DNA of 32,000 bases from Opitutales bacterium (GTDB taxonomy: Bacteria > Verrucomicrobiota > Verrucomicrobiia > Opitutales > PNEW01), in assembly GCA_965219535.1 (NCBI GenBank), contig CBDCNV010000002.1:1200001-1232000 (forward strand), read 5' to 3'. A model generated the notes under the pieces. It saw only the letters and a program-made list of their open reading frames with translations, was not told the origin of the DNA and made no database searches. Below are positions 6,430 to 26,173 of this stretch, in pieces. Positions within the stretch are counted from its first letter, which is position 1, and every line of letters starts with the position of its first letter. The position numbers and the translations under genes are program-made.

Positions 6430-7296
6430 TCACCGGAGGATGCGTTGATCGCTTAGGTCTTTGCCTCCAACACTCTTCGTAATAGTTGCGCCGCGGTATT
6501 CCTTAATTTCTAGTTCATGAAAGGCGTTGACGATTGAGTACTGCGTTGGGAGGTCTTCCCAGCGAGCTTTATGAAACTGCACGGTTCCTTCTCCCTCCCA
6601 TGATTCTTGCATTTTGGAATTAGGTGTAGCTTCTGGTGTCATAACAATGTAATTGGCATCGGCAACTCCCCACTCACCCGTTCGAGGCATATACTTATAG
6701 TGCAGGATTCCTGTCAAAACATCACCGGCCTGATTATCAGCGTTTTGATCCACCGGTGGATCAGATGGGTTATTCATTTCCACGGGTTTCATGTTATGAA
6801 GATGCATATCCATAAACTTGAAGCCCAGCCAACTGGCAATACAATGTGTTTCTCCATCCAGCACCGTCGGCTCTGGTAGTTCGCAATAGATTTTAGAGAA
6901 ACCCAATTGCTCACGCCCTGTCAGTATCGGATCGGTTAAATTTTCCCAGAGCACGGTAAGAAAGCTGCCAACAGCGCGGTCCTGTTTTCCATTAAAAATA
7001 ACGGGAAAACTTACACCAAGGACATTGTATCCACGACCGGCCAACCATTCGATCTCTGTCATGTTGGTGGCATAAACGGTAACAATAGGTTCCTCACCAA
7101 GCTCCAGGCCCATGCCATCGGGGATCAGGGCGTCTAACTGTTCGCGATTGCTTAAGAAACTGACTGACCTCGACGTCACCTTGGGTGAGTCTATGCATTC
7201 GAATTTTCTTCCGTCCGGTCCCTGCCTCGGGCCCATACCCGGGCCAAAGTGTGTCGGCATCATGTACATTTTATTTGGATCTAATTTATAGGCCAT
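6430..7296 (-). CDS. Acetoacetate decarboxylase (ADC) family protein
   Basis: 288-aa ORF. The segment VIFNGKQDRAVGSFLTVLWENLTDPILTGREQLGFSKIY resembles the ADC-family core (V.FNG..G.Y ... GRE..G.PK). Assigned from memory of the family pattern only. Confidence 0.55.
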   Translation of the reverse strand: MAYKLDPNKMYMMPTHFGPGMGPRQGPDGRKFECIDSPKVTSRSVSFLSNREQLDALIPDGMGLELGEEPIVTVYATNMTEIEWLAGRGYNVLGVSFPVIFNGKQDRAVGSFLTVLWENLTDPILTGREQLGFSKIYCELPEPTVLDGETHCIASWLGFKFMDMHLHNMKPVEMNNPSDPPVDQNADNQAGDVLTGILHYKYMPRTGEWGVADANYIVMTPEATPNSKMQESWEGEGTVQFHKARWEDLPTQYSIVNAFHELEIKEYRGATITKSVGGKDLSDQRILR

Positions 7297-7308
7297 TGTG
7301 CTTACTCG

Positions 7309-8820
7309 TTATAATTTATTTCGCTTGGATAAGGTTGAGGGAAAGTCTTGAAGATCCAAATTTTTATCGAGCGGATAGATAGGGCGGCGAACATTTTTGT
7401 AGTCGTAGCTCAATAGATTTGGACTATGCACACCGGGTGTATCGACTTCCAGAATTTCGTGTGCGAGGGGTGTGAAATCCGCGCGAAAGTGAACTGCGGA
7501 TTTGAGGACAATTATCTTCCGGTCCACGGGTTCAATACCGACGCTTCGTAGAACTTCGGCGTCAAAAGGTTGCGTCCGATTTTCAGTCAGGATGATTTCG
7601 ATACCACCGGTTTCAATTACTGCGGTTCGTCCCATTCCCGATTTTATTCCCCGGCTCATTGGGCCTTTGTGGACAAAACTTCCATCGGAAATTAATTTCA
7701 CATAACCATCAATTGCGACGGGTTCACCATGCCTGGGGTCTGTCTTGCCCCCAACTTGGAGTGAAACCGTGTTACCGACACCTGCTTCAATCGCGAGATT
7801 AACGGATTCAGGATCAGTAATGATCGCAAAAACCGCGTCCTGCACTCCAGCTTCAATAAATGCGCGGAGAATATGCGTACCATCACAGGGCGCTCCACCA
7901 CCGGGGTTGTCCGATCCTTCAGCGAGCACGATCGGTTTTCCTTCAGTCTTATTGGCGTGCGCGATGGCCTCATCGATCGAAACAAGGTTGCCCTGGAATG
8001 CTTCTCGAATTTTCCACACGTGGCTTGAAAATTCATCGGCCAATCTATCGGCAAGCGCTTGATCATTGTTTGTCGTCACCAACACCGTTACGCCGGCAAT
8101 AGAAATGTCGGCAAAGGGAAATCCCATTGACAGGGTCGCGGTCTCCACTCCGGGCCCCTCTTCGAGAGCGTGAAGTTTTTCCATAACGGCAATCATCGGC
8201 TGTTTCATCGTGCACTGACCGGGTGGTGACGTCAGCAATGGAAGCTGTCGGTAAGCCATTGTCGGCACAACTTTACCTTCGATGACTTTATGCAGCAATT
8301 GTCCGGCCTCGTACCCGCGATCATACATATCGATATGCGGATAAGTATCGTACCCTATAATGACATCGGAAAATTCTGCCATTTTAGGTCCTATATTTGC
8401 ATGGAGATCAAGCGTTGTGACTATGGGTATTGCGCCGACATATTCGCGAACAGCAGCAATTAAATCTGCCTCGCCGTCTTCGATTTCTTCCACCGCCATC
8501 GCCCCGTGCAAATCAAGAAGAACGCCGTCAAGATTTCCTGCATTGTGCAGTATTTCCATGAATTCAGATTTGAGAGTGTCGTAGGCAGAATGCTCCACAA
8601 TTCCTGAGGGAGTGGCGAAAGTCCAGAGGAGGGGAACGAGCTCGATACCTCGTTCCTCAGCGGCGTCCATGTACCCGCCCATGATCGTGTTCGTATTTCT
8701 AAAGACCGGGAACATTTCCTCGCCAACATAATACTGCCGTTCCTTGAAACTATCAATCGTCGTCGGGACTAGGGAAAAGGTATTGGTTTCATGTCCAATA
8801 CAGCCAACAGCTATTTGCAT
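7309..8820 (-). CDS. M81-family metallopeptidase (MlrC-like, microcystinase C family)
   Basis: 503-aa ORF. The N-terminus IAVGCIGHETNTFS is the characteristic MlrC N-terminal domain signature, and length and layout fit the family. Confidence 0.8.
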   Translation of the reverse strand: MQIAVGCIGHETNTFSLVPTTIDSFKERQYYVGEEMFPVFRNTNTIMGGYMDAAEERGIELVPLLWTFATPSGIVEHSAYDTLKSEFMEILHNAGNLDGVLLDLHGAMAVEEIEDGEADLIAAVREYVGAIPIVTTLDLHANIGPKMAEFSDVIIGYDTYPHIDMYDRGYEAGQLLHKVIEGKVVPTMAYRQLPLLTSPPGQCTMKQPMIAVMEKLHALEEGPGVETATLSMGFPFADISIAGVTVLVTTNNDQALADRLADEFSSHVWKIREAFQGNLVSIDEAIAHANKTEGKPIVLAEGSDNPGGGAPCDGTHILRAFIEAGVQDAVFAIITDPESVNLAIEAGVGNTVSLQVGGKTDPRHGEPVAIDGYVKLISDGSFVHKGPMSRGIKSGMGRTAVIETGGIEIILTENRTQPFDAEVLRSVGIEPVDRKIIVLKSAVHFRADFTPLAHEILEVDTPGVHSPNLLSYDYKNVRRPIYPLDKNLDLQDFPSTLSKRNKL

Positions 8821-13406: not shown

Positions 13407-15095
13407 ATGAAAGAATTGCCTGAGAAAAAAACCCCGACTGAATCGCTTGATGTACGGCGCCGGATTGAAGAGACGATTGCCGGTACGCGGCCTATCGATG
13501 ATAACTACCCATATTTCGCGCCCGACTACACGGTACACACTTTACACATCGGCACGGAGAAGCAGTTGTTCCTAGATAATTTTATTCTCGATCACTTGGA
13601 AGCAGTCGAGCGTATCATCACCAAACCGGAGCGCCCCGATGCGCCTATTCTCAATGCCAGGGATCATCCCTGGGAGGTGGACGATGAAACTTTTCCCGCC
13701 GCCGCCCTCCATGATCCGGATGATGGTAAGTTCAAAATTTGGTACGTCCAATCTTCAGTTGATGAAGAAGATGTCGATAGGGCGTTTGGCGATTCAGGCA
13801 TGATTCTCTGCTATGCTGAATCGACCGACTGTCAACACTGGGAGAAACCTCTCAGTGAAAAGTGTCTCCCTTATAAAGAGCACAAAGCTACGAATATTGT
13901 TCTCGAAGATTCGGGCCACCACATTGCACTCGTTTTGAATCCCGATCAAAGCGATCCCGAAAGAAAGTACTTGATGGTCTATAACCCCCATGACTTGGCC
14001 CAATCGCGAGACCTCAAGTTCATGTCAACGATGGCCGTGTCACCCGACGGTCTGCGTTGGACAACGGTCAGCGAGGATTCAACGCAGCGTCATCACCATT
14101 TTCAGCGCGCCATCTGGGATGATTCGATAAATAAATGGATAACATACAGCCAGTACTCTCCTCACTGGAACTTTCTCCACCGCAAGCGACAGGTTGGCCG
14201 GCAGGAGAGTGAAGACTTTATTCACTGGTCGCCTAAAGAGGTGGTGCTCTCTGTGGATTGGGATCCCCACCTGCCGCCCAATGTAGAATTTCATGAAATG
14301 TCGGTACGAAAAGTGGGCGGTCTCTACATCGGAATAGCGACAGAATTTAATTCTGAACCGATCTGGGGTGCTTTTCGAGATGAGAATTGGCGCGATCATG
14401 CCTATGGGACCTTGAGTCTATATTCCAGCCGCGACGGTATTCGCTGGCAGCGGGCGAGTGGAGCTGAGCCATGGGTGGATACGGGACGGCCGGGAACTTA
14501 TGATTATGGGTTTGTCTGTGACACGGTTGCCGGGCAGCTCGTTCATAATGGAAGAACCTACATTGTTTACAGTGCGCGCACCGAAAAACAGAATTGGCAC
14601 GACATCGAGAGACCGGATGACAGGGGAGGTGAAGCATCATTTAAACCCGTGCCTGAATCAGTTTTTGAAAAAAGTAAACAAGACCATGCAAATTTAGCTA
14701 AATATGTTGGGAAATATCAGAAGTGGGATTATATAACGATCAGCACCCTTATCCTGCGCGAAGATGGTTGGGCGGAGTTGAAACCGACCTATGAAAATGG
14801 CAAGGTGATTACCCGGCAATTCGTCTTCGAAGGCGATACCTTAAAAATAAATGCCGAGGCCTATGGCGGGTACATTGAAGTTGAGATCGTCGATCCGCAA
14901 TTTAAACCCTTTGAGGGTTATTCCACTGAGGAATGTGATCCTGTCACCAGCGACGATCCCAATCAAATCTGGTACACCGTTAGTTGGAGAGGCAAATCAG
15001 ATGTGTGTGCTTTATGGAACAAACCGGTTCGCCTCGTCTTTCATCTCCATCAAGCCAGCCTCTACGCCTTCCAGTTTGTGGATAATAGCGTGTAA
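13407..15095 (+). CDS. Cytoplasmic glycoside-hydrolase-like beta-propeller protein with C-terminal beta-sandwich (paralog 1)
   Basis: 562-aa ORF with no signal peptide. The C-terminal GGYIEVEIVD...STEECDPVTSDD...VSWRGKSDVCALWNKPVRLVFHL..ASLYAFQF resembles the C-terminal module of GH32/GH43-clan enzymes. The family assignment is tentative. Confidence 0.6.
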   Translation: MKELPEKKTPTESLDVRRRIEETIAGTRPIDDNYPYFAPDYTVHTLHIGTEKQLFLDNFILDHLEAVERIITKPERPDAPILNARDHPWEVDDETFPAAALHDPDDGKFKIWYVQSSVDEEDVDRAFGDSGMILCYAESTDCQHWEKPLSEKCLPYKEHKATNIVLEDSGHHIALVLNPDQSDPERKYLMVYNPHDLAQSRDLKFMSTMAVSPDGLRWTTVSEDSTQRHHHFQRAIWDDSINKWITYSQYSPHWNFLHRKRQVGRQESEDFIHWSPKEVVLSVDWDPHLPPNVEFHEMSVRKVGGLYIGIATEFNSEPIWGAFRDENWRDHAYGTLSLYSSRDGIRWQRASGAEPWVDTGRPGTYDYGFVCDTVAGQLVHNGRTYIVYSARTEKQNWHDIERPDDRGGEASFKPVPESVFEKSKQDHANLAKYVGKYQKWDYITISTLILREDGWAELKPTYENGKVITRQFVFEGDTLKINAEAYGGYIEVEIVDPQFKPFEGYSTEECDPVTSDDPNQIWYTVSWRGKSDVCALWNKPVRLVFHLHQASLYAFQFVDNSV

Positions 15096-15231: not shown

Positions 15232-15270
15232 TTTTGACCTTTTGACCTTTTGACCTTTTGACTTTTTGAC
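15232..15270 (+). promoter_or_regulatory. TTTTGAC(C/T) array (5 units) directly upstream of paralog 2
   Basis: TTTTTGACC TTTGACC TTTTGACC TTTTGAC TTTTTGAC, ending 7 nt before the ATG at 15278. Confidence 0.55.
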
Positions 15271-15277
15271 TTACGTA

Positions 15278-16954
15278 ATGACAGAAAAACCTGAGAAAAA
15301 AAACCCGACTGAATCGCTTGATGTGCAGCGCAGGATCGAAGAGACGATTGCCGGCACGCGGCCCATCGATGACAACTACCCTTATTTCACGCCCGATTAC
15401 GCCTTACACAGTTTACACATTGGCACGGAGAGGCAGTTATTTGTTGATAACTTCATTCTCGATCACCTCGAAGATGTAAAGCGTGTCATATGCAAGCCCC
15501 AACGACCGAAAAATCCAATCTTCAAGTCGAGGGAACTACCCTGGGAATTGAAACCGGGTATTTTTCCTGCCGCGGCTCTCCAGGATCCGGATGACGGCAA
15601 GTTCATGCTCTGGTACTGCCAATCTTATGTCGGTGGAGCCTGGGGTGATTCGGGTATGATCCTTTGTTATGCCGAGTCACAGGATTGTCGGCATTGGGAA
15701 AAACCACTCAGTGAAAAATGTTTCCCTTATAAAGAACACAAAGCAACCAATATCGTTCTTGAAGATTCCGGTCATCATATTGCCCTGGTGGTGAATCCCG
15801 ACCAAAGCGATCCCGCACGTAAATTCATGATACTTTACAATCCTAATGACAAAGCGCAGGAGAGAGGGCAAAAAACAATGTCGACAGTGGCCGTCTCGCC
15901 AGACGGCTTGCAATGGACCACCGTCAGTGAGGATACGCCGATGCGCCATCATCATTATCAACGCGCGATCTGGGATGATTCGATAAATAAATGGATTGCT
16001 TACAGCCAGTATTCCCATCACTGGAACTTTCTCCACCTAAAGCGGCAGGTTGGCCGGCAGGTGAGTGAGGACTTCATCAATTGGTCACCTAAAGAGGTGG
16101 TGCTGTCGGTTGATGGTGACCCCCATTTACCGCCCAATGTAGAATTTCATGAAATGTCGGTGCGCAAGGTGGGTGGTCTCTACATCGGCATCGCGACAGA
16201 ATTTCACTCCGAACCGATTTGGGTTGTCGGTAAGACACGGAATTGGCGCGACCAGGCTTATGCGAACTTAAGTCTCTACGTCAGTCGCGATGGAATACAC
16301 TGGCAGCGGGCAAGCGGCTCGGAGCCATGGGTAGATAATGGACGGCCCGGCAGTTATAATAGTGGATTCGTAGCTGCTTCGGTTGCCGGGCAACTTGTCC
16401 ATGACGGTAAAATCTACATCGTCCACTCTACAGGTCCTAAAAAACAAAGTTGGCACGGCCGACCACCGCAACCGAAATATAAAAACATTCGCCCACTGCC
16501 TACAACCTTTGTGCCCGAAGAAAATTTTGAAAAAGGGGATCGCGATTACGCGCGCCTGGTTGAGAATATGGGTAAATTTCCGAGGGAAGATGGAGGGATC
16601 AGCACCCTCATCCTGCGCGAAGATGGCTGGGCGGAGTTGAAACCAACCTATGAAAACGGCAATGTGATTACCCGGCAGTTTGTCTTCGAAGGCGATACCT
16701 TAAAAGTAAATGCGGATGCCTATGGCGGATACATTGAGGTGGAGATAGTTGATCCTCACTTTAAACCCTTTGCCGGTTTTTCCACTGAGGACTGCGATCC
16801 CGTGGTAAGTGACGATCCCAATCAAATCTGGCACACCGTCAGTTGGAAAGGGAAATCAGATCTCTCCGCACTGTGGAACAAGCCAGTTCGCCTTATCTTC
16901 CATCTCCATCAAGCCAGTATTTTTGCATTTCAGTTTGTGGATAAGCAGGGTTAA
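15278..16954 (+). CDS. Glycoside-hydrolase-like beta-propeller protein (paralog 2)
   Basis: The track ORF starts at a TTG (15266) inside the repeat array. The ATG at 15278 gives MTEKPEKKNPTESLDV, aligning with MKELPEKKTPTESLDV of paralog 1. The two are collinear and roughly three-quarters identical by eye. Confidence 0.6.
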   Translation: MTEKPEKKNPTESLDVQRRIEETIAGTRPIDDNYPYFTPDYALHSLHIGTERQLFVDNFILDHLEDVKRVICKPQRPKNPIFKSRELPWELKPGIFPAAALQDPDDGKFMLWYCQSYVGGAWGDSGMILCYAESQDCRHWEKPLSEKCFPYKEHKATNIVLEDSGHHIALVVNPDQSDPARKFMILYNPNDKAQERGQKTMSTVAVSPDGLQWTTVSEDTPMRHHHYQRAIWDDSINKWIAYSQYSHHWNFLHLKRQVGRQVSEDFINWSPKEVVLSVDGDPHLPPNVEFHEMSVRKVGGLYIGIATEFHSEPIWVVGKTRNWRDQAYANLSLYVSRDGIHWQRASGSEPWVDNGRPGSYNSGFVAASVAGQLVHDGKIYIVHSTGPKKQSWHGRPPQPKYKNIRPLPTTFVPEENFEKGDRDYARLVENMGKFPREDGGISTLILREDGWAELKPTYENGNVITRQFVFEGDTLKVNADAYGGYIEVEIVDPHFKPFAGFSTEDCDPVVSDDPNQIWHTVSWKGKSDLSALWNKPVRLIFHLHQASIFAFQFVDKQG

Positions 16955-20114: not shown

Positions 20115-20277
20115 CAGGTATATGTAGTAAGCGGTTCGCTCACTTTGTTAGCTGGACGATGTTGACGCGCTGTTACAATCGATAGATGAAGTTCTCCGAG
20201 TAGTAAGAACCAATGGTGTTGGACCTTTAATCATTAATCCAACAACTAAATAAGTATCTATAAAGTATAAGCTAAAT

Positions 20278-20541
20278 TTAAGCGGCTATTATACTTGAAC
20301 TATTCTCATCACAAACGACTCGGATTTTACCCCCGTTGGTGGCTTCCGCTTTTAGATGTGTTGCCGCGTAGTCTAAGGAATTCGGATTTACGAGGTGTGT
20401 TTCTTCTCCGCTCGTCTCACTGAGCATAACTTTTTTCGCTTTGCCCCATGAGTAAAAGGTAGAGACAACATAATATTGAAAGGTTAAGATTAGAACACCA
20501 GCCATTACCCATAAGATTGGGAGCATATTTGTTATTTCCAT
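20278..20541 (-). CDS. Small single-pass membrane protein, unknown function
   Basis: 87-aa ORF with one hydrophobic helix (MLPILWVMAGVLILTFQYYVVSTF). It lies in AT-rich DNA and has no recognisable motif. Confidence 0.35.
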   Translation of the reverse strand: MEITNMLPILWVMAGVLILTFQYYVVSTFYSWGKAKKVMLSETSGEETHLVNPNSLDYAATHLKAEATNGGKIRVVCDENSSSIIAA

Positions 20542-20975
20542 GATTATTGTTTTTATTAGGGTTTATACTTTATTTCTTGATACTTAATTAATAAAATAGC
20601 CATTTATTTCGTTTTGTATAGCTAAAATTCATAGTTTTTTTTTTTTATATATAATATAGGTAATATACACTATATTTATCATACTTAACTGTTTACAGTT
20701 ATTTGTAGAGGTAAAGAATGATTGAGGGGGGCTTAATTTAGCTGATAACCACTCAATCTCGCTTGATTGGCACTACGGCTGGTGAGTGCTATATTGAGCC
20801 CTCAGAAAAAAAGTGAATTTAAATAGATTAATCCACCTAATTATCCAATGAATGCCTTATGCCGGCATCCGCTCGTCACCCTGTTAAATTCTAATCGGTG
20901 CCCTATAAATATTTTATGATCTTTAATTCGCAAAAAAGAAATAATATTTTTATCACTTAAAAGATGTAGAGGCTG

Positions 20976-21970: not shown

Positions 21971-22368
21971 ATGAAAAATAGACAAACAATAATGCTTAAT
22001 AAAACTCGGGGTGCGGCTTTAGTCATTGCTGTCGTCTTTACTTTAATCATGTCAGCCTTGGTTGTCAGCTATCTCATAATAGTGAAAAATGAATTAAAAG
22101 CATCGAACCGTTTTTCGCTCTTTTTAGAAACCCTAAATATAGCTGAATCTGGAGTAGAAGAAGTTGCCTGGGCACTCAATAATAATGATTGGACGGATTG
22201 GGATGAAACGGGGATATATAAAGAACGAACATTAGATGGTTTTAATCTGAGCGCGAATAAAACGGGAAGCGTCACTATAATCGTAGAGGATTTTGCCAAC
22301 GATCCAACCGTTTATGCCGAAGGACATGTGCAAACTGTAGGTGGAGACGACATTAAAAAGCAAATTGA
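21971..22368 (+). pseudogene. N-terminal fragment of a GspK/PilX-like large minor pseudopilin, interrupted by the IS element
   Basis: RGAALVIAVVFTLIMSALVVSYL is a GspK/PilX-type N-terminus. The ORF continues into the IS (to 22480), producing a chimeric tail. The reading frame resumes at 25255. Confidence 0.8.
22361..22368. repeat. Left copy of the 8-bp target-site duplication, CAAATTGA
   Basis: An identical octamer lies at 25247..25254, immediately outside the other inverted repeat. Confidence 0.85.
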
Positions 22369-22390
22369 GGTAGTGTCTCAGTTTGAATTT
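22369..22390 (+). repeat. IRL of the IS1-family element
   Basis: GGTAGTGTCTCAGTTTGAATTT is the exact reverse complement of 25225..25246. It begins GGTRRTG like IS1 ends. Confidence 0.9.
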
Positions 22391-23220
22391 TCATCAATCA
22401 GGCTAACGATCCAAGCTATATCATGCAATTCGTTAGTCAAACCTGCTTCCATTGCCGGTGTTACTTTTAATGTCTTGTGAATACGAACAAAGTTATAATG
22501 CACGAAATACAGCGACAGCATGTGCAGATGATTTTCCAGTTTCTTAGAAAACGCATTTGTAAGCCGTGTAAAGCGTCTCATTCCCATATGCATAGATAGG
22601 TTGGAACGTTCAACATGTGACGTGCTCACAGCCGACTTGTCAGGTTTGCCAGCGATCAAATTCTTGTGTGTTCCTTTGCATACCGAAGGGCTATATTTAC
22701 GATCATGGCTTTGGCTTGAATCATCACTATAAAGCTTTACTAGTTGTGCATAGTCAACATCTCCCCCAAATGCCCCTTCAATAGCCTGTAAATAGGCACG
22801 GTGACCATCTGTAGTGAGTTGCACACGGTTTGCCAGACGTGACCGCAAATCAGACATAAAATCAAGAGCAGTATCAGCGGAGCGGTCACCCACTTCGTAA
22901 GACAAGATCATCTTGCTGGTGCTATCAAGAGCCGTCCAGGTCCAGACATCACCTGCATCTTGTGGTGCGGCCTTAGCGGTAGGAATATTTTTGTCCTTAG
23001 CGTAGCAGAATGACCAGATTTCATCACACTGGACACGCCGGGCTTTTACGTTGCGAACCTTCTCATTATGATAGGCAGCACAAGCTTTGCCAGCGTCTAC
23101 AAGTAGCTTGGTCACCGTGTTGATTGAAACATCCACAGTTCGGGAGATTGACCGCATGGACATACCTTCAACCAGCATCGAAAGGATCATTACGCGTTTT
23201 TCTAAGGGCAGTTTGTTCAT
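22378..23220 (-). CDS. IS1-family transposase (single-ORF type, HTH + DDE)
   Basis: 280-aa ORF with the N-terminal HTH MSMRSISRTVDVSINTVTKLL. Candidate DDE residues lie in QCDEIWSF, TTDGHRAY and VERSNLSMHMGMRRFTRLTNAFSKKLENH. The last matches the IS1 InsB pattern IERxNLxxRxxxxRLxRKxxxFSK. Confidence 0.85.
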   Translation of the reverse strand: MNKLPLEKRVMILSMLVEGMSMRSISRTVDVSINTVTKLLVDAGKACAAYHNEKVRNVKARRVQCDEIWSFCYAKDKNIPTAKAAPQDAGDVWTWTALDSTSKMILSYEVGDRSADTALDFMSDLRSRLANRVQLTTDGHRAYLQAIEGAFGGDVDYAQLVKLYSDDSSQSHDRKYSPSVCKGTHKNLIAGKPDKSAVSTSHVERSNLSMHMGMRRFTRLTNAFSKKLENHLHMLSLYFVHYNFVRIHKTLKVTPAMEAGLTNELHDIAWIVSLIDENSN

Positions 23221-23269
23221 GCCCTTAATATCGTATAATGACCCTTATTTATCAAGCATTAATTTCACT

Positions 23270-23470
23270 TTAAGTGAAATTATACGGCCTACTTTTATTG
23301 CTTCCATATGGAAATGGAATGCTTGCAGGTTCATTCTGGGTATCTTCTTCAAGATCACTTAGATAGTCTAAATCATCAAATTCTTCTTTAAGTCTTCGAT
23401 TAGCATCATCAAAGATCTTTATATATGGATTGGTTGATTTATCAGACTCTGGTGATTGATTTTTTTTCAT
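23270..23470 (-). CDS. Small acidic protein (66 aa), unknown function, IS cargo
   Basis: Its ATG overlaps the protease stop as ATGA (23467..23470). Rich in D/E (EEFDDLDYLSDLEEDTQNE). No known motif. Confidence 0.45.
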   Translation of the reverse strand: MKKNQSPESDKSTNPYIKIFDDANRRLKEEFDDLDYLSDLEEDTQNEPASIPFPYGSNKSRPYNFT

Positions 23471-24357
23471 ATTATTGTCCTTAGTCCTTGTTGTGAATGA
23501 ATATAACCTCTAATACCAGATTTTTTGGTATAATAATCGACGCAAAGACCATGATAATGTTTAATTGCGTTATTTAGTTCTTCGTTATTTCCATAATCGT
23601 CTACCTCTAATTTAATTTCAGGTCCCACCAATTCTCTCATAGGAATACCTCGACCATGTGAGTGCCATTTTTCAGCATTCCCTAAAATTTTGCTGATATC
23701 CTCTGCTCGTTTTTTCTTCATTTTATCAGTAACTTTCTCTTTTCTGGATCCAGTTTCATTCCAATCTTTAAATTTATATTTCGGGAGCCATTCCATAATA
23801 AGCGATCTACCATGATTAATCGCTTGTTCAATACGAAATAGTAGAGCTGGATCAAAATTTTTCACCAAATACGCCAATTCTGCATTTGATGGTAACTCAG
23901 GATTATTAATTATTTCTGTAAGGTCCTTATATTTTGAGAGATAACCAACACCAGGCAAAAGCTGCTTGCCTTCTGGGTCTTGATATTGAGGATCTATTGG
24001 CCCTAAAACAGAATAATAGTCCATGTAAATAGCATCACCAGAAAGAGCTAGAACTGTTCCTGCTGAATATGCATAGTTTGGTATTACAAAAGAAACTTTT
24101 TCGTATATAGAGCGCATAACAGAAACCAATCTTTCCACTGTTTCCATATATCCACCTAAAGTTTCAAGCATGACGATGAGATGCGTTTTCTCAGAATCGA
24201 TGGATACATTTTCAATGACGATTCTAAATTCATCGTCAAGAGGTGCCTGTAAGCCACAATTTATAAAGACACAATCCCCTTCCATCAACCTACTCAAATT
24301 CTTGTTTATATCTAGAAGAGTACATTGAATGAGTTGATCTACATTTATCCCCTCCAT
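23467..24357 (-). CDS. SDH-family ClpP/crotonase-fold serine proteinase (S49-like), IS cargo
   Basis: 296-aa ORF. LETLGGYMETVERLV ... NYAYSAGTVLALSGDAIYMDYYSVLGPIDPQ matches the ClpP-fold serine-protease core (nucleophile Ser in YSAGT). Confidence 0.75.
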   Translation of the reverse strand: MEGINVDQLIQCTLLDINKNLSRLMEGDCVFINCGLQAPLDDEFRIVIENVSIDSEKTHLIVMLETLGGYMETVERLVSVMRSIYEKVSFVIPNYAYSAGTVLALSGDAIYMDYYSVLGPIDPQYQDPEGKQLLPGVGYLSKYKDLTEIINNPELPSNAELAYLVKNFDPALLFRIEQAINHGRSLIMEWLPKYKFKDWNETGSRKEKVTDKMKKKRAEDISKILGNAEKWHSHGRGIPMRELVGPEIKLEVDDYGNNEELNNAIKHYHGLCVDYYTKKSGIRGYIHSQQGLRTII

Positions 24358-24566
24358 CTTTTCTCGGCTGCTTTCTTGGCAATCTTAGTCCTTTGCTCAC
24401 GCGTTAAGGATTCAGCACGTGCTTTACCTCCAACTAGTCCTCCATTGCGTTTTGCTGGTTGTTTGTAACCTGTTTCCTCGATTTCACCCGTCGCGATCTT
24501 TGCAACTGTTACAGCATTGCCAATCACGTCCGCAGGTCGTTTTTGTCCTTTTTGTCCTTTTGGCAT
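24345..24566 (-). CDS. Small basic protein (73 aa) with C-terminal GGKARAxxLTxEQRxxIAKKAAxKRW motif, IS cargo
   Basis: Lys/Arg-rich. ADVIGNAVTVAKIATGE plus the GGKARA...RW tail is a pattern I recall from small uncharacterised proteins on mobile DNA. The stop overlaps the protease start by 13 nt. Confidence 0.6.
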   Translation of the reverse strand: MPKGQKGQKRPADVIGNAVTVAKIATGEIEETGYKQPAKRNGGLVGGKARAESLTREQRTKIAKKAAEKRWRG

Positions 24567-24637
24567 TAGTTTTATGTTGGATTATTCGGCTGGTATATCC
24601 TTTAAAAATTGTGGACGGATAATATATTTATACAAAC

Positions 24638-24678
24638 AAAAAAAATTACATACCCGCAATCTGGCAGCGGGTATGTAA
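24638..24678 (-). terminator. Perfect 12-bp stem hairpin followed by U8 on the minus strand (intrinsic-terminator shape) in a divergent intergenic region
   Basis: TTACATACCCGC-AATCTGGCA-GCGGGTATGTAA, with A8 (24638..24645) on the plus strand, which is U8 after the stem on the minus strand. It lies upstream of the minus-strand cargo operon. Confidence 0.55.
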
Positions 24679-24718
24679 AAATAATATCATTACCCACATT
24701 TTGCAACAAAAAATCGAG

Positions 24719-25237
24719 ATGAACGATGCGAAGCAACTATTTTGGGAAGCCATCGACTGGTTGCGAGAAAGTTATTTTGAACATCGGTTCTTTGCCGAGC
24801 GGGATATTGTTTGGACGGTTCAGAAGCGCCTTATAGACGAGATTTCGCGGAAAGATCTACCGTATCGAGTATTTCATAACTACACTATAGAACTGAAAAA
24901 TGAAAATATCTACGCCGACCTTGTCCTGATCAGGCCAAAGGAAACAGTTGAAGTGGCGGCTGAATTCAAATATGAACCTGCGCATAGAAGAAGTAAAATA
25001 GATATACCTCCAGGGAAATTTAATGTCGTTAGGTGGCCCGAGGTCGAAAAAGATGTAGTTCGCATCAAGGATTGTGTGAATGAGAAACGTGTGCAATATG
25101 CTTGTTCTCTACTCATCGACGAAGGAGGTCATTTCAAAAAAAACGAACCTCCCCTTGGCGGTCGTTGGGAGAGGTGGTCGTCCGAAATCCATGTTCTCAT
25201 TTCGGAGGCAAAAAATCATTCCATAAATTCAAACTGA
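24719..25237 (+). CDS. Hypothetical protein with a PD-(D/E)xK-like motif, IS cargo
   Basis: The track ORF begins at a TTG (24701), so I prefer the ATG at 24719 (172 aa). IYADLVLIRPKETVEVAAEFKYEP fits D...ExK on consecutive beta-strands. The stop codon lies inside the IRR. Confidence 0.45.
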   Translation: MNDAKQLFWEAIDWLRESYFEHRFFAERDIVWTVQKRLIDEISRKDLPYRVFHNYTIELKNENIYADLVLIRPKETVEVAAEFKYEPAHRRSKIDIPPGKFNVVRWPEVEKDVVRIKDCVNEKRVQYACSLLIDEGGHFKKNEPPLGGRWERWSSEIHVLISEAKNHSINSN

Positions 25238-25246
25238 GACACTACC
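25225..25246 (-). repeat. IRR of the IS1-family element
   Basis: AAATTCAAACTGAGACACTACC is the exact reverse complement of the IRL. Confidence 0.9.
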
Positions 25247-25254
25247 CAAATTGA
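25247..25254. repeat. Right copy of the 8-bp target-site duplication, CAAATTGA
   Basis: Identical to 22361..22368. Confidence 0.85.
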
Positions 25255-26173
25255 GGTAAAATTGACGCGCCGTTCTCTATTTGCTAATTGTCTCACCGCC
25301 AAGGATTTTATAACCTTTATGGGTGCAAATGCTATGGTTGACAGTTTTGATTCCAATGACGGACCCTATGACCCATTTTTTAATCGTGGCGCTAATGCAA
25401 CGGTAGCGAGTCTTTCCGTAGGCGTAAGTATGGTCAATATACAAAATGCAAGTATCTTTGGCTATGTTGCCACGGGGGGTGGAGAGGTTGATGTCGGACC
25501 CAATGGTTTTGTTTCTGATATGGTTGATCCTCCGGTACACGATTCCACCAGGATCACAAATGATTTTAAGGCAGATTTAAAGAATGTATCTGCCCCCACT
25601 CTGAGTTCTCCCACAACCACATTGCCGGGTGGTAATGTCAAAACTATCGGAGTACCAAATGCTAATCCTCCTGATGAATTCCATTTCACAGACCTTACTA
25701 TCGGTAACAATGAAACCCTTATTATTGATGGGCCAGTTACTATTGTCGTAGATAATGAAGTTGATGCAAGAGGTGATATTACGGTGACACCCAATGGATC
25801 AGTCACATTTTATGTTGAAGGTGATTTCGAAACCAAGGGTGCCATAAATAATACTAACGTAGCTTCGTCACTTGTCATCTACGGCACAAATACCACACCT
25901 CTAGGTCAAAGTATAACCTTAGGTGGACAGGGTGACCTCACGGCGGTAGTATACGCTCCTAATGCAGAGTTAAAGTATGCTGGTGGTGGTGGTTCTGGGA
26001 CGTTTACTGGTGCTGCTGTTTGTTACAGTTCAAGTATCGGTGGAACCTATGAATTTCATTATGACGTAGCACTAAGGGACTTTTTTGGTTCGGATCCCTC
26101 CTTTAAGATGGTGAGTTATCGCGAACTTGAAGGGAACGATAGAATCGATTTCGCCACTTACATAAACCCGTAA
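25255..26173 (+). pseudogene. C-terminal fragment of the interrupted GspK/PilX-like pseudopilin (beta-helix-like tail)
   Basis: It has no ATG; the track ORF starts at a TTG (25262). It is in frame with 21971..22368 once the IS and one TSD copy are removed. VDSFDSNDGPYDP and LVIYGT...GGQGDLTAVVYAPNAELKYAGGG are typical of PilX-like tails downstream of minor pilins. Confidence 0.8.

Follow-up and report, generated by a model that had tools for sequence, protein, structure and literature searches.

A ClpP-fold serine protease and a small protein encoded directly behind it form, as judged by comparison of related loci, one conserved and independently moving unit, which in the DNA described here occupies an exchangeable slot within a mobile element of the IS1 family. 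The DNA in question, referred to as the window, is a stretch of 32,000 nucleotides from an Opitutales bacterium (Verrucomicrobiota; GenBank assembly GCA_965219535.1, contig CBDCNV010000002.1, positions 1,200,001 to 1,232,000). It contains a trio of closely packed open reading frames (ORFs) on the minus strand, encoding a basic protein of 73 amino acids (aa), a 296-aa protease of the serine dehydrogenase proteinase (SDH) type and a 66-aa protein, and these are followed by the gene for a transposase. In our reading, to which we assign a probability of about 0.5, the protease and its 66-aa partner would constitute a toxin–antitoxin (TA) or abortive-infection (Abi)-like cassette that can be exchanged for others within the insertion sequence (IS).

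The genes of the trio are tightly coupled. The stop of the 73-aa ORF extends 13 nt into the start of the protease gene, the protease stop and the start of the 66-aa ORF share a 4-nt ATGA overlap, and 49 nt separate the 66-aa ORF from the transposase gene, all on the minus strand. A preliminary description of the window had reported this layout, and all coordinates, overlaps and the 49-nt gap were verified; the 13-nt overlap also recurs in most IS-borne copies. For comparison, ~200 related loci were assembled, and the counts given for the pair are from 81 non-redundant loci in species-representative genomes. A coupled ORF of 45–151 aa (median 65 aa) lies within a few bases of the protease stop in 77 of these 81 loci, which come from many phyla; the overlap is −4 (ATGA) in 44 of the 77 and −1 in a further 9. 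The arrangement is not due to chance.

The sequences of the small partners have one recurrent feature. The motif [LIVFMA]P[YF][STGACV] is found in 62 of the small ORFs, mostly 14–20 residues from the C-terminus, where it appears as FPYG or LPYSS, often followed by Trp; small ORFs from distant clades carry a GY(D/N)L..P(F/Y)S variant. The 66-aa protein of the window conforms to this pattern, with a helical or acidic N-terminal part and a C-terminal IPFPYGS...PY motif. A single-sequence search with this protein against 1.8 billion representatives returned 22 clusters at E ≤ 1e-3, and no match was found in Pfam, NCBIfam, PADLOC or PHROGs. On this comparative evidence we regard the small ORF as a real, fast-evolving gene. 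Its acidity is not part of what is conserved: isoelectric points (pI) in the family have a median of 6.2 and range from 4.3 to 10.7, so that the pairing of a basic with an acidic protein around a protease, to which the preliminary description had drawn attention, is no conserved design.

Two further observations concern the architecture of the pair. Tandem pair arrays with decayed or truncated proteases and intact small ORFs occur at loci L011 (5040–7250), L026 (5001–7115) and L034 (5001–6546), in Thermodesulfobacteriota and in metagenome-assembled genomes (MAGs) of sponge-associated Rhodothermales. One 389-aa protein (P0245) consists of a protease with degenerate motifs (GLTYPQ, RWFSCGRN) fused to a C-terminal LPYSS segment; this natural fusion could also be an assembly frameshift.

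The pair is found without the basic protein, the transposase or the inverted repeats at 49 loci. Two lambdoid prophages of E. coli that differ in their immunity regions have it (300 aa + 56 aa) directly downstream of cI, and in one of these prophages it adjoins HicAB; an E. coli prophage pair is located at L089 (4812–5885; RefSeq WP_021518647 and WP_167851737). Overall, 17 of 5,426 complete E. coli genomes contain the pair. Phage lambda carries rexAB just downstream of cI. The neighbours of the pair are a multiubiquitin/ThiF/DUF6527 cluster on one Rhizobium plasmid, and Fic and a helicase on one from Methylosinus; in a Pseudomonadales MAG, a variable island lies beside it. The protease is also encoded on 27 viral contigs, 24 of which have a coupled small ORF downstream, and more distant protease homologues include p15 of the Mu-like Shewanella phage MuM16-1 and gp31 of Gordonia phage BeeGee. 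At one locus (L005, 7146–11011), comparison with L004 and L006 from the same sample reveals an insertion of ~4 kb right after the pair, comprising eight small ORFs (one of them DUF6731), which suggests that the site behind the pair is a hotspot for variable genes.

The third member of the trio behaves quite differently. Over the 81 loci, a homologue of the 73-aa protein and the transposase are both present in 28, the former alone in 4, the latter alone in none, and neither in 49 (Fisher's exact p = 8e-18). Of the four loci with the 73-aa gene alone, two are at the end of a contig, and a third is a derivative without transposase in which both inverted repeats persist. Only loci with the 73-aa gene contain the inverted repeat, and this gene is missing from every transposase-free copy of the pair. 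Because the 73-aa protein tracks the transposase and the repeats whatever the slot holds, and is missing off the IS, locus comparison identifies it as a backbone gene of the IS clade and not as a protease-specific partner. The preliminary description had proposed the trio as a candidate module, with conserved co-occurrence of its three genes as a check; such co-occurrence stands for the protease and small ORF, while the 73-aa gene follows the transposase, and the trio as a unit has to be given up.

Relatives of the 73-aa protein number at least 4,993 and bear the NCBI names 'RNA-binding protein' or 'histone H1'. Searches of PADLOC, PHROGs, NCBIfam and Pfam gave nothing except a weak match to phrog_2384, whose positions 5–37 align with the C-terminal residues 40–72, and a PDB sequence search returned nothing. 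The AlphaFold2 (AF2) model comprises three helices at low confidence (predicted template modelling score, pTM, 0.36). We envisage that it might act as a nucleic-acid-binding backbone factor which, in a manner functionally similar to InsA of IS1, would tune expression or transposition. P63C-domain proteins of 344–350 aa located in the IS slot (L129, 1315–2367; L130, 4321–5373; L167, 696–1730) match the 73-aa profile, and the arginine/alanine-rich motif may be a portable module.

The element that carries the trio is clearly delimited. An insertion of 2,878 bp (22369–25246) holds the trio, the transposase gene and a divergent 178-aa ORF (orf178), as listed in the table together with the flanking features. 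When the segment 22369–25254 is deleted in silico, the frame is continuous and a single uninterrupted 438-aa pseudopilin-like ORF with DUF7305 results. Given the perfect repeats, the 8-bp duplication and the restoration of the host ORF on excision, the segment represents a 2.9-kb IS1-family element that was inserted recently; the mobile-element setting proposed in the preliminary description is thereby borne out.

Table. Features of the IS1-family element and its insertion site (window coordinates).
Feature	Position	Strand	Remarks
Target-site duplication, copy 1, CAAATTGA	22361–22368		8-mer directly outside inverted repeat
Target-site duplication, copy 2, CAAATTGA	25247–25254		same 8-mer as copy 1
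Terminal inverted repeat, transposase end, GGTAGTGTCTCAGTTTGAATTT	22369–22390		22/22 identical to other end
Terminal inverted repeat, basic-protein end	25225–25246		perfect 22-bp partner of 22369–22390
IS1-family DDE transposase, 280 aa, single ORF, N-terminal helix-turn-helix (HTH)	22378–23220	−	PF03400 match
Small partner, 66 aa	23270–23470	−	pI 4.5; ATGA overlap with protease stop
SDH-type protease, 296 aa	23467–24357	−	PF01972 match; candidate catalytic S98, D122, H232/H234
Basic protein, 73 aa	24345–24566	−	pI 10.6; 18 K+R
AT-rich divergent intergenic region	24567–24700		between divergent starts of 73-aa gene and orf178
orf178, 178 aa	24701–25237	+	divergent from 73-aa gene; ends within inverted repeat
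Split host gene, 5′ part, PilX_N-like pseudopilin	21971–22368	+	weak PilX_N match
Split host gene, 3′ part, DUF7305 domain	25255–26173	+	DUF7305 E=5e-26

In ISfinder, IS1 is described as having GGnnnTG ends and a target duplication of 8–9 bp. The inverted repeats of the window element start with GGTAGTG, in agreement with a GGnnnTG start that we take to be typical of IS1 ends, and the duplication is of the expected length. The transposase exceeds the cutoff for Pfam DDE_Tnp_IS1 (PF03400; 30.6 bits, cutoff 24.1), has its best NCBIfam match in transpos_IS1 (E=3.5e-20; 72.8 bits, below the cutoff of 100), and its RefSeq homologues at 55–64% identity are named 'IS1 family transposase'. It is thus a DDE transposase of IS1 type. 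The InsA and InsB frames joined by a programmed −1 frameshift are not found; one ORF of 280 aa encodes the whole transposase, which includes an HTH of its own, and the element is therefore a single-ORF-type relative, not a classical IS1.

The same inverted repeat bounds related elements in other genomes and in RefSeq plasmids, and the anchor repeat of the IS clade, which combines the basic protein with the IS1-type transposase, is GGTAGTGTCTCAGTTTGAA. Sister elements have this inverted repeat in common, together with a basic protein that is ~70–75% identical and a transposase that is 54–75% identical in BLAST hits to related loci; elements of the clade are 2.4–4.2 kb in size. Comparison of their sequences yields a common layout, namely inverted repeat, small basic protein, variable slot, single-ORF transposase, inverted repeat. 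Minimal elements of 2.39–2.44 kb (for example L022, 2781–5184) contain only inverted repeat, 73-aa gene, protease, small ORF, transposase and inverted repeat, with ~150–200 nt between the inverted repeat and the 73-aa gene.

What the slot holds varies widely. In PanA-type sister elements (L093–L100), it contains a Panacea-domain protein (SocA_Panacea, PF13274) and a small membrane ORF; in others, a ~200-aa protein is accompanied by an HTH/Peptidase_M78 protein (Rosmer-like, with an ImmA-type protease). Further contents comprise a P63C-domain protein, a DUF2335 membrane protein and many unknowns, and an Acidiphilium element has a distant SDH-like protease with a 68-aa ORF on the opposite strand. 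Some cassettes are oriented opposite to the rest of the element. A protein of the 73-aa type precedes PanA, Rosmer-like and other cassettes alike. A transposase tree places protease-bearing elements throughout the clade, the deepest branches among them, with PanA-type and other elements in between, and the protease and transposase identities to the window copy drop jointly (67/75, 62/69, 57/68, 47/54 and 42/48%). From these comparisons, the association between protease and IS is old, and the slot has been exchanged repeatedly. The term 'cargo', used in the preliminary description, fits the pair in so far as it is a slot cassette, and fits less well with protease and transposase identities that fall together to ~42–48%.

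On an Acidiphilium plasmid (L209, 4383–5221), a pair of RES-domain toxin and Xre/MbcA antitoxin genes begins where the IS ends, in overlap with the stop of the transposase gene, so that a further TA module touches this clade. At another locus (L074), where a true Panacea ORF follows the protease, PanA was considered as a substitute partner, which seemed to point to the protease as the toxin; this was rejected, as PanA has its own overlapping 103-aa membrane ORF, and the idea was also ruled out by the syntenic loci L204–L207, which have no PanA.

The protease belongs, on the evidence of sequence and predicted structure, to the SDH-type ClpP-fold serine proteases and is neither SppA nor ClpP. 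It matches Pfam SDH_protease (PF01972) with 45.9 bits (cutoff 31.3), in an alignment limited to residues 58–127, and scores 56.4 bits against the NCBIfam equivalog NF047768, below the cutoff of 250. The match to phrog_11747 has E=3e-42, and RefSeq lists the homologue from E. coli as 'SDH family Clp fold serine proteinase'. Scores against housekeeping families are low (SppA_dom 16.1 bits against a cutoff of 155; CLP_protease 13.1 against 20.2), and a weak match to NfeD1b_N is also below the cutoff; the assignment to an SDH/ClpP-fold protease in the preliminary description is supported. The family comprises as many as 1,912 clusters at E ≤ 1e-3, and relatives that are 57–70% identical over their full length occur in many phyla.

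In 26 protease homologues, S98 (in YSAGT), D113, D122 (in GPIDPQ), H182, H232 and H234 are invariant, as is the segment WHSHGRGI (residues 231–238). S98 aligns with the ClpP segment that bears the catalytic Ser, and the enzyme looks catalytically intact. The AF2 model is of good quality (predicted local distance difference test, pLDDT, 87; pTM 0.86). In Foldseek searches, its N-terminal half or core fits ClpP, the stomatin protease NfeD 1510-N and SppA with template modelling (TM) scores of 0.3–0.45, and models of giant-virus 'serine dehydrogenase proteinases' fit over the whole length (280–290 columns, TM 0.55–0.6). The model and the structure matches thus predict a ClpP/crotonase-like fold with whole-length similarity to SDH proteinases; a PDB sequence search found no solved structure from the SDH family. 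The protein is predicted to be soluble, with no evident membrane segments or signal peptide, and has a distinct C-terminal helical half.

The reading of the pair as an exchangeable TA or Abi-like cassette draws on genomic context and on the precedents of IetS and PanAT. It is favoured because PanAT- and Rosmer-like modules occupy the same slot, because the pair lies in prophage immunity regions, and because TA and defence genes are found nearby. The arrangement expected of type II TA systems, that is adjacent, co-oriented and coupled genes on mobile DNA, is also seen, in IS, prophage and plasmid contexts. The toxin–antitoxin or defence shape that the preliminary description attributed to the trio fits the context of the protease/small-ORF pair, not that of the trio as the unit. 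In such a cassette, the protease would be the effector. The co-translated partner would keep it inactive, with the C-terminal ΦP(Y/F)(G/S) motif (Φ, hydrophobic residue) serving as a pseudo-substrate or plug; were the partner lost or titrated, for instance on phage infection or when the element disappears, the protease would be released and could cleave targets of the cell or the phage.

Several points weigh against this reading. No toxin or antitoxin domain was detected in the trio proteins with Pfam, NCBIfam or PADLOC; the proteins of the window have no match in PADLOC-DB v2, and the E. coli, Rhizobium and Methylosinus homologues have none in PADLOC at E ≤ 1, which accords with the earlier statement that no named defence system is built in this way. 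A literature search gave no paper on the protease family, and nothing specific on the family of the pair or on IS1 elements with passenger genes. The sole apparent swap between the small ORF and a PanA antitoxin, at L074, proved to be a separate pair of PanA and membrane ORF. The small partner lacks a DNA-binding domain and varies in charge across its family, and the fold of the 73-aa protein is predicted without confidence. The deepest branches of the transposase tree include protease-bearing elements, and these diverge in step with their transposases, a pattern also compatible with a function for the element itself. Finally, the argument from context is one of guilt by association. A bolder form of the proposal, in which the pair is a new, widespread protease-effector Abi/TA system and the IS1 clade a dedicated shuttle for exchangeable TA and defence cassettes, a minimal defence-cassette carrier of IS size, with the basic protein tying their expression to transposition, is tentative and in our estimate somewhat unlikely.

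The roles within the pair might also be reversed, with a harmful or regulated small protein that the protease neutralises by degrading it or processing it at its C-terminal motif. Analogues would be a protease antitoxin such as RmrA of Rosmer, or removal of a toxin by proteolysis as in SocAB; SocA-mediated proteolysis is described in PMC8832971. The gene order of PanA-type slots, antitoxin followed by small putative toxin, is the same as that of protease and small ORF, and ImmA-type protease antitoxins occur in the same slot of other elements. Furthermore, among related ClpP-fold proteases, cleavage of an operon partner or of the enzyme's own C-terminus is known, and NfeD 1510-N and SppA are among the fold matches. 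We nevertheless consider this unlikely: the small protein is hydrophilic, with neither a membrane segment nor an enzymatic domain, and conservation is confined to a short linear motif, a feature seen more typically in ligands or inhibitors than in toxins.

Rather improbable, too, is a use of the pair as an offensive or counter-defence tool, in which the protease would degrade a factor of the host or of a competitor (e.g. an immunity protein or repressor) and the small protein would serve as adaptor, chaperone or specificity factor. Homologues are indeed found in phages able to grow lytically (p15 of MuM16-1 and gp31 of BeeGee) and in many viral contigs, and the protease matches phrog_11747. 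However, the E. coli pair is situated by cI, in a region expressed during lysogeny that is the classic place for host-protective morons, and the pair is stably carried on chromosomal IS copies and on non-phage islands.

The joint fall in protease and transposase identities, the presence of protease-bearing elements on the deepest branches of the transposase tree, and the organisation of all genes on one strand with overlaps or short gaps would agree with a trio that serves the transposon, the pair processing or regulating the transposase, the basic protein or a host factor for transposition. That possibility is quite unlikely, since many elements of the clade transpose with wholly different or opposite-strand slot contents, and the pair lacks a transposase in 49 of the 81 loci as well as in prophages and on plasmids. 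The notion of an ordinary housekeeping protease (SppA-, ClpP- or NfeD-like) caught by chance, with small ORFs that are no genes, can point to the weak sub-threshold matches to SppA, ClpP and NfeD1b_N, but with all of these scores under their cutoffs, with the protein sequences of both small ORFs conserved from phylum to phylum, and with a protease gene that is patchy, multi-copy and borne on mobile elements, it is effectively refuted by the sequence comparisons.

The remaining features of the window concern the surroundings of the trio. The product of orf178 has no family match in Pfam, NCBIfam, PADLOC or PHROGs, and no homologue was found in plasmids or, its own locus excepted, in the 86 related loci; by this comparison, orf178 appears to be an extra passenger unique to the window copy, located in the variable space that separates the inverted repeat from the 73-aa gene. 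A Limibaculum element has an unrelated 106-aa ORF in the same place, and L037 likewise has additional, unrelated ORFs at this position. The AT-rich region between orf178 and the 73-aa gene is presumably the promoter region for the basic-protein operon and for orf178. A scan for promoters and terminators gave no signals above shuffled expectation, and the regions upstream of the 73-aa gene in related elements show no conservation beyond the inverted repeat.

The Limibaculum MAG contains four identical copies of a 2,778-bp element. In two of the four otherwise identical copies (L018 and L020, ~6622–7466), an insertion of ~844 bp splits the transposase gene, possibly another small mobile element that has entered the IS. 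Elsewhere in the window, a segment of ~750 bp (20200–20950), upstream of the pseudopilin cluster, has a GC content of 0.30–0.35 compared with ~0.45–0.55 around it, and few long ORFs. Two adjacent ORFs on the plus strand (13407–15095 and 15266–16954), both of 562 aa, may be tandem paralogues.

TA or defence cassettes on transposable elements are of a kind already known; what is new here is an uncharacterised, widespread two-gene protease module, and an IS1 clade with an exchangeable cassette slot. If the favoured function holds, the pair would represent a protease-based TA or defence system that has no match in PADLOC-DB v2, and its range, from E. coli prophages to MAGs of sponge symbionts, makes it directly testable in E. 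coli. An element of 2.4–4 kb can carry modular TA or defence cassettes (protease pair, PanAT, Rosmer-like), which bears on how such systems spread and swap partners. A large family annotated as 'RNA-binding protein' or 'histone H1' gains a concrete genomic role as an IS backbone gene, and the distinction between backbone and cassette corrects the annotation even if the function proves to be different.

Comparison with known systems places the pair and its carrier separately. With SppA and with NfeD 1510-N, which is encoded with stomatin, the window protease has the core fold in common, together with the weak NfeD1b_N match, and the paradigm of a protease encoded beside a protein whose C-terminal region it binds or cleaves would also fit. 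It differs from them in that the similarity is confined to the core, and in being soluble, having a WHSHGRG motif and being paired with a partner that is no stomatin. The likeness of the E. coli pair to rexAB of lambda is one of position directly downstream of cI alone, since neither protein has sequence or domain similarity to RexA or RexB.

IetAS resembles the window pair in being a two-gene mobile module with a serine protease as the proposed toxic effector. IetS is subtilisin-like, not ClpP-fold, and its partner is a large ATPase; the window pair combines a ClpP-fold protease with a partner of ~65 aa, and no sequence relationship to IetAS was detected (PADLOC negative). In PMC13069673, which cites Yamamoto 2009, IetAS is presented as a serine-protease toxin with an AAA-ATPase antitoxin that confers plasmid stabilisation and anti-phage activity. 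As regards PanAT, genuine Panacea-domain pairs are present in sister elements, and such pairs often adjoin transposases (PMC8832971). The window itself contains no PF13274, and PanA is a neighbour of the protease only at L074.

Tn3-family transposons with integral TA pairs, cited in PMC8832971, are similar in that a two-gene TA-type module lies inside the transposition unit of a small transposon; the window element has a transposase of another family and neither a resolvase nor a res site. With the IS1 family, whose single-ORF and passenger-carrying ('transporter IS') variants come closest, it shares the IS1-type DDE transposase, the GGnnnTG start of the repeats and the 8-bp duplication. The clade to which it belongs departs from IS1 in the absence of the InsA/InsB frameshift and in size (2.4–4.2 kb as against ~0.77 kb), and it adds an unrelated, conserved basic protein of ~70 aa at the far end as well as the exchangeable slot.

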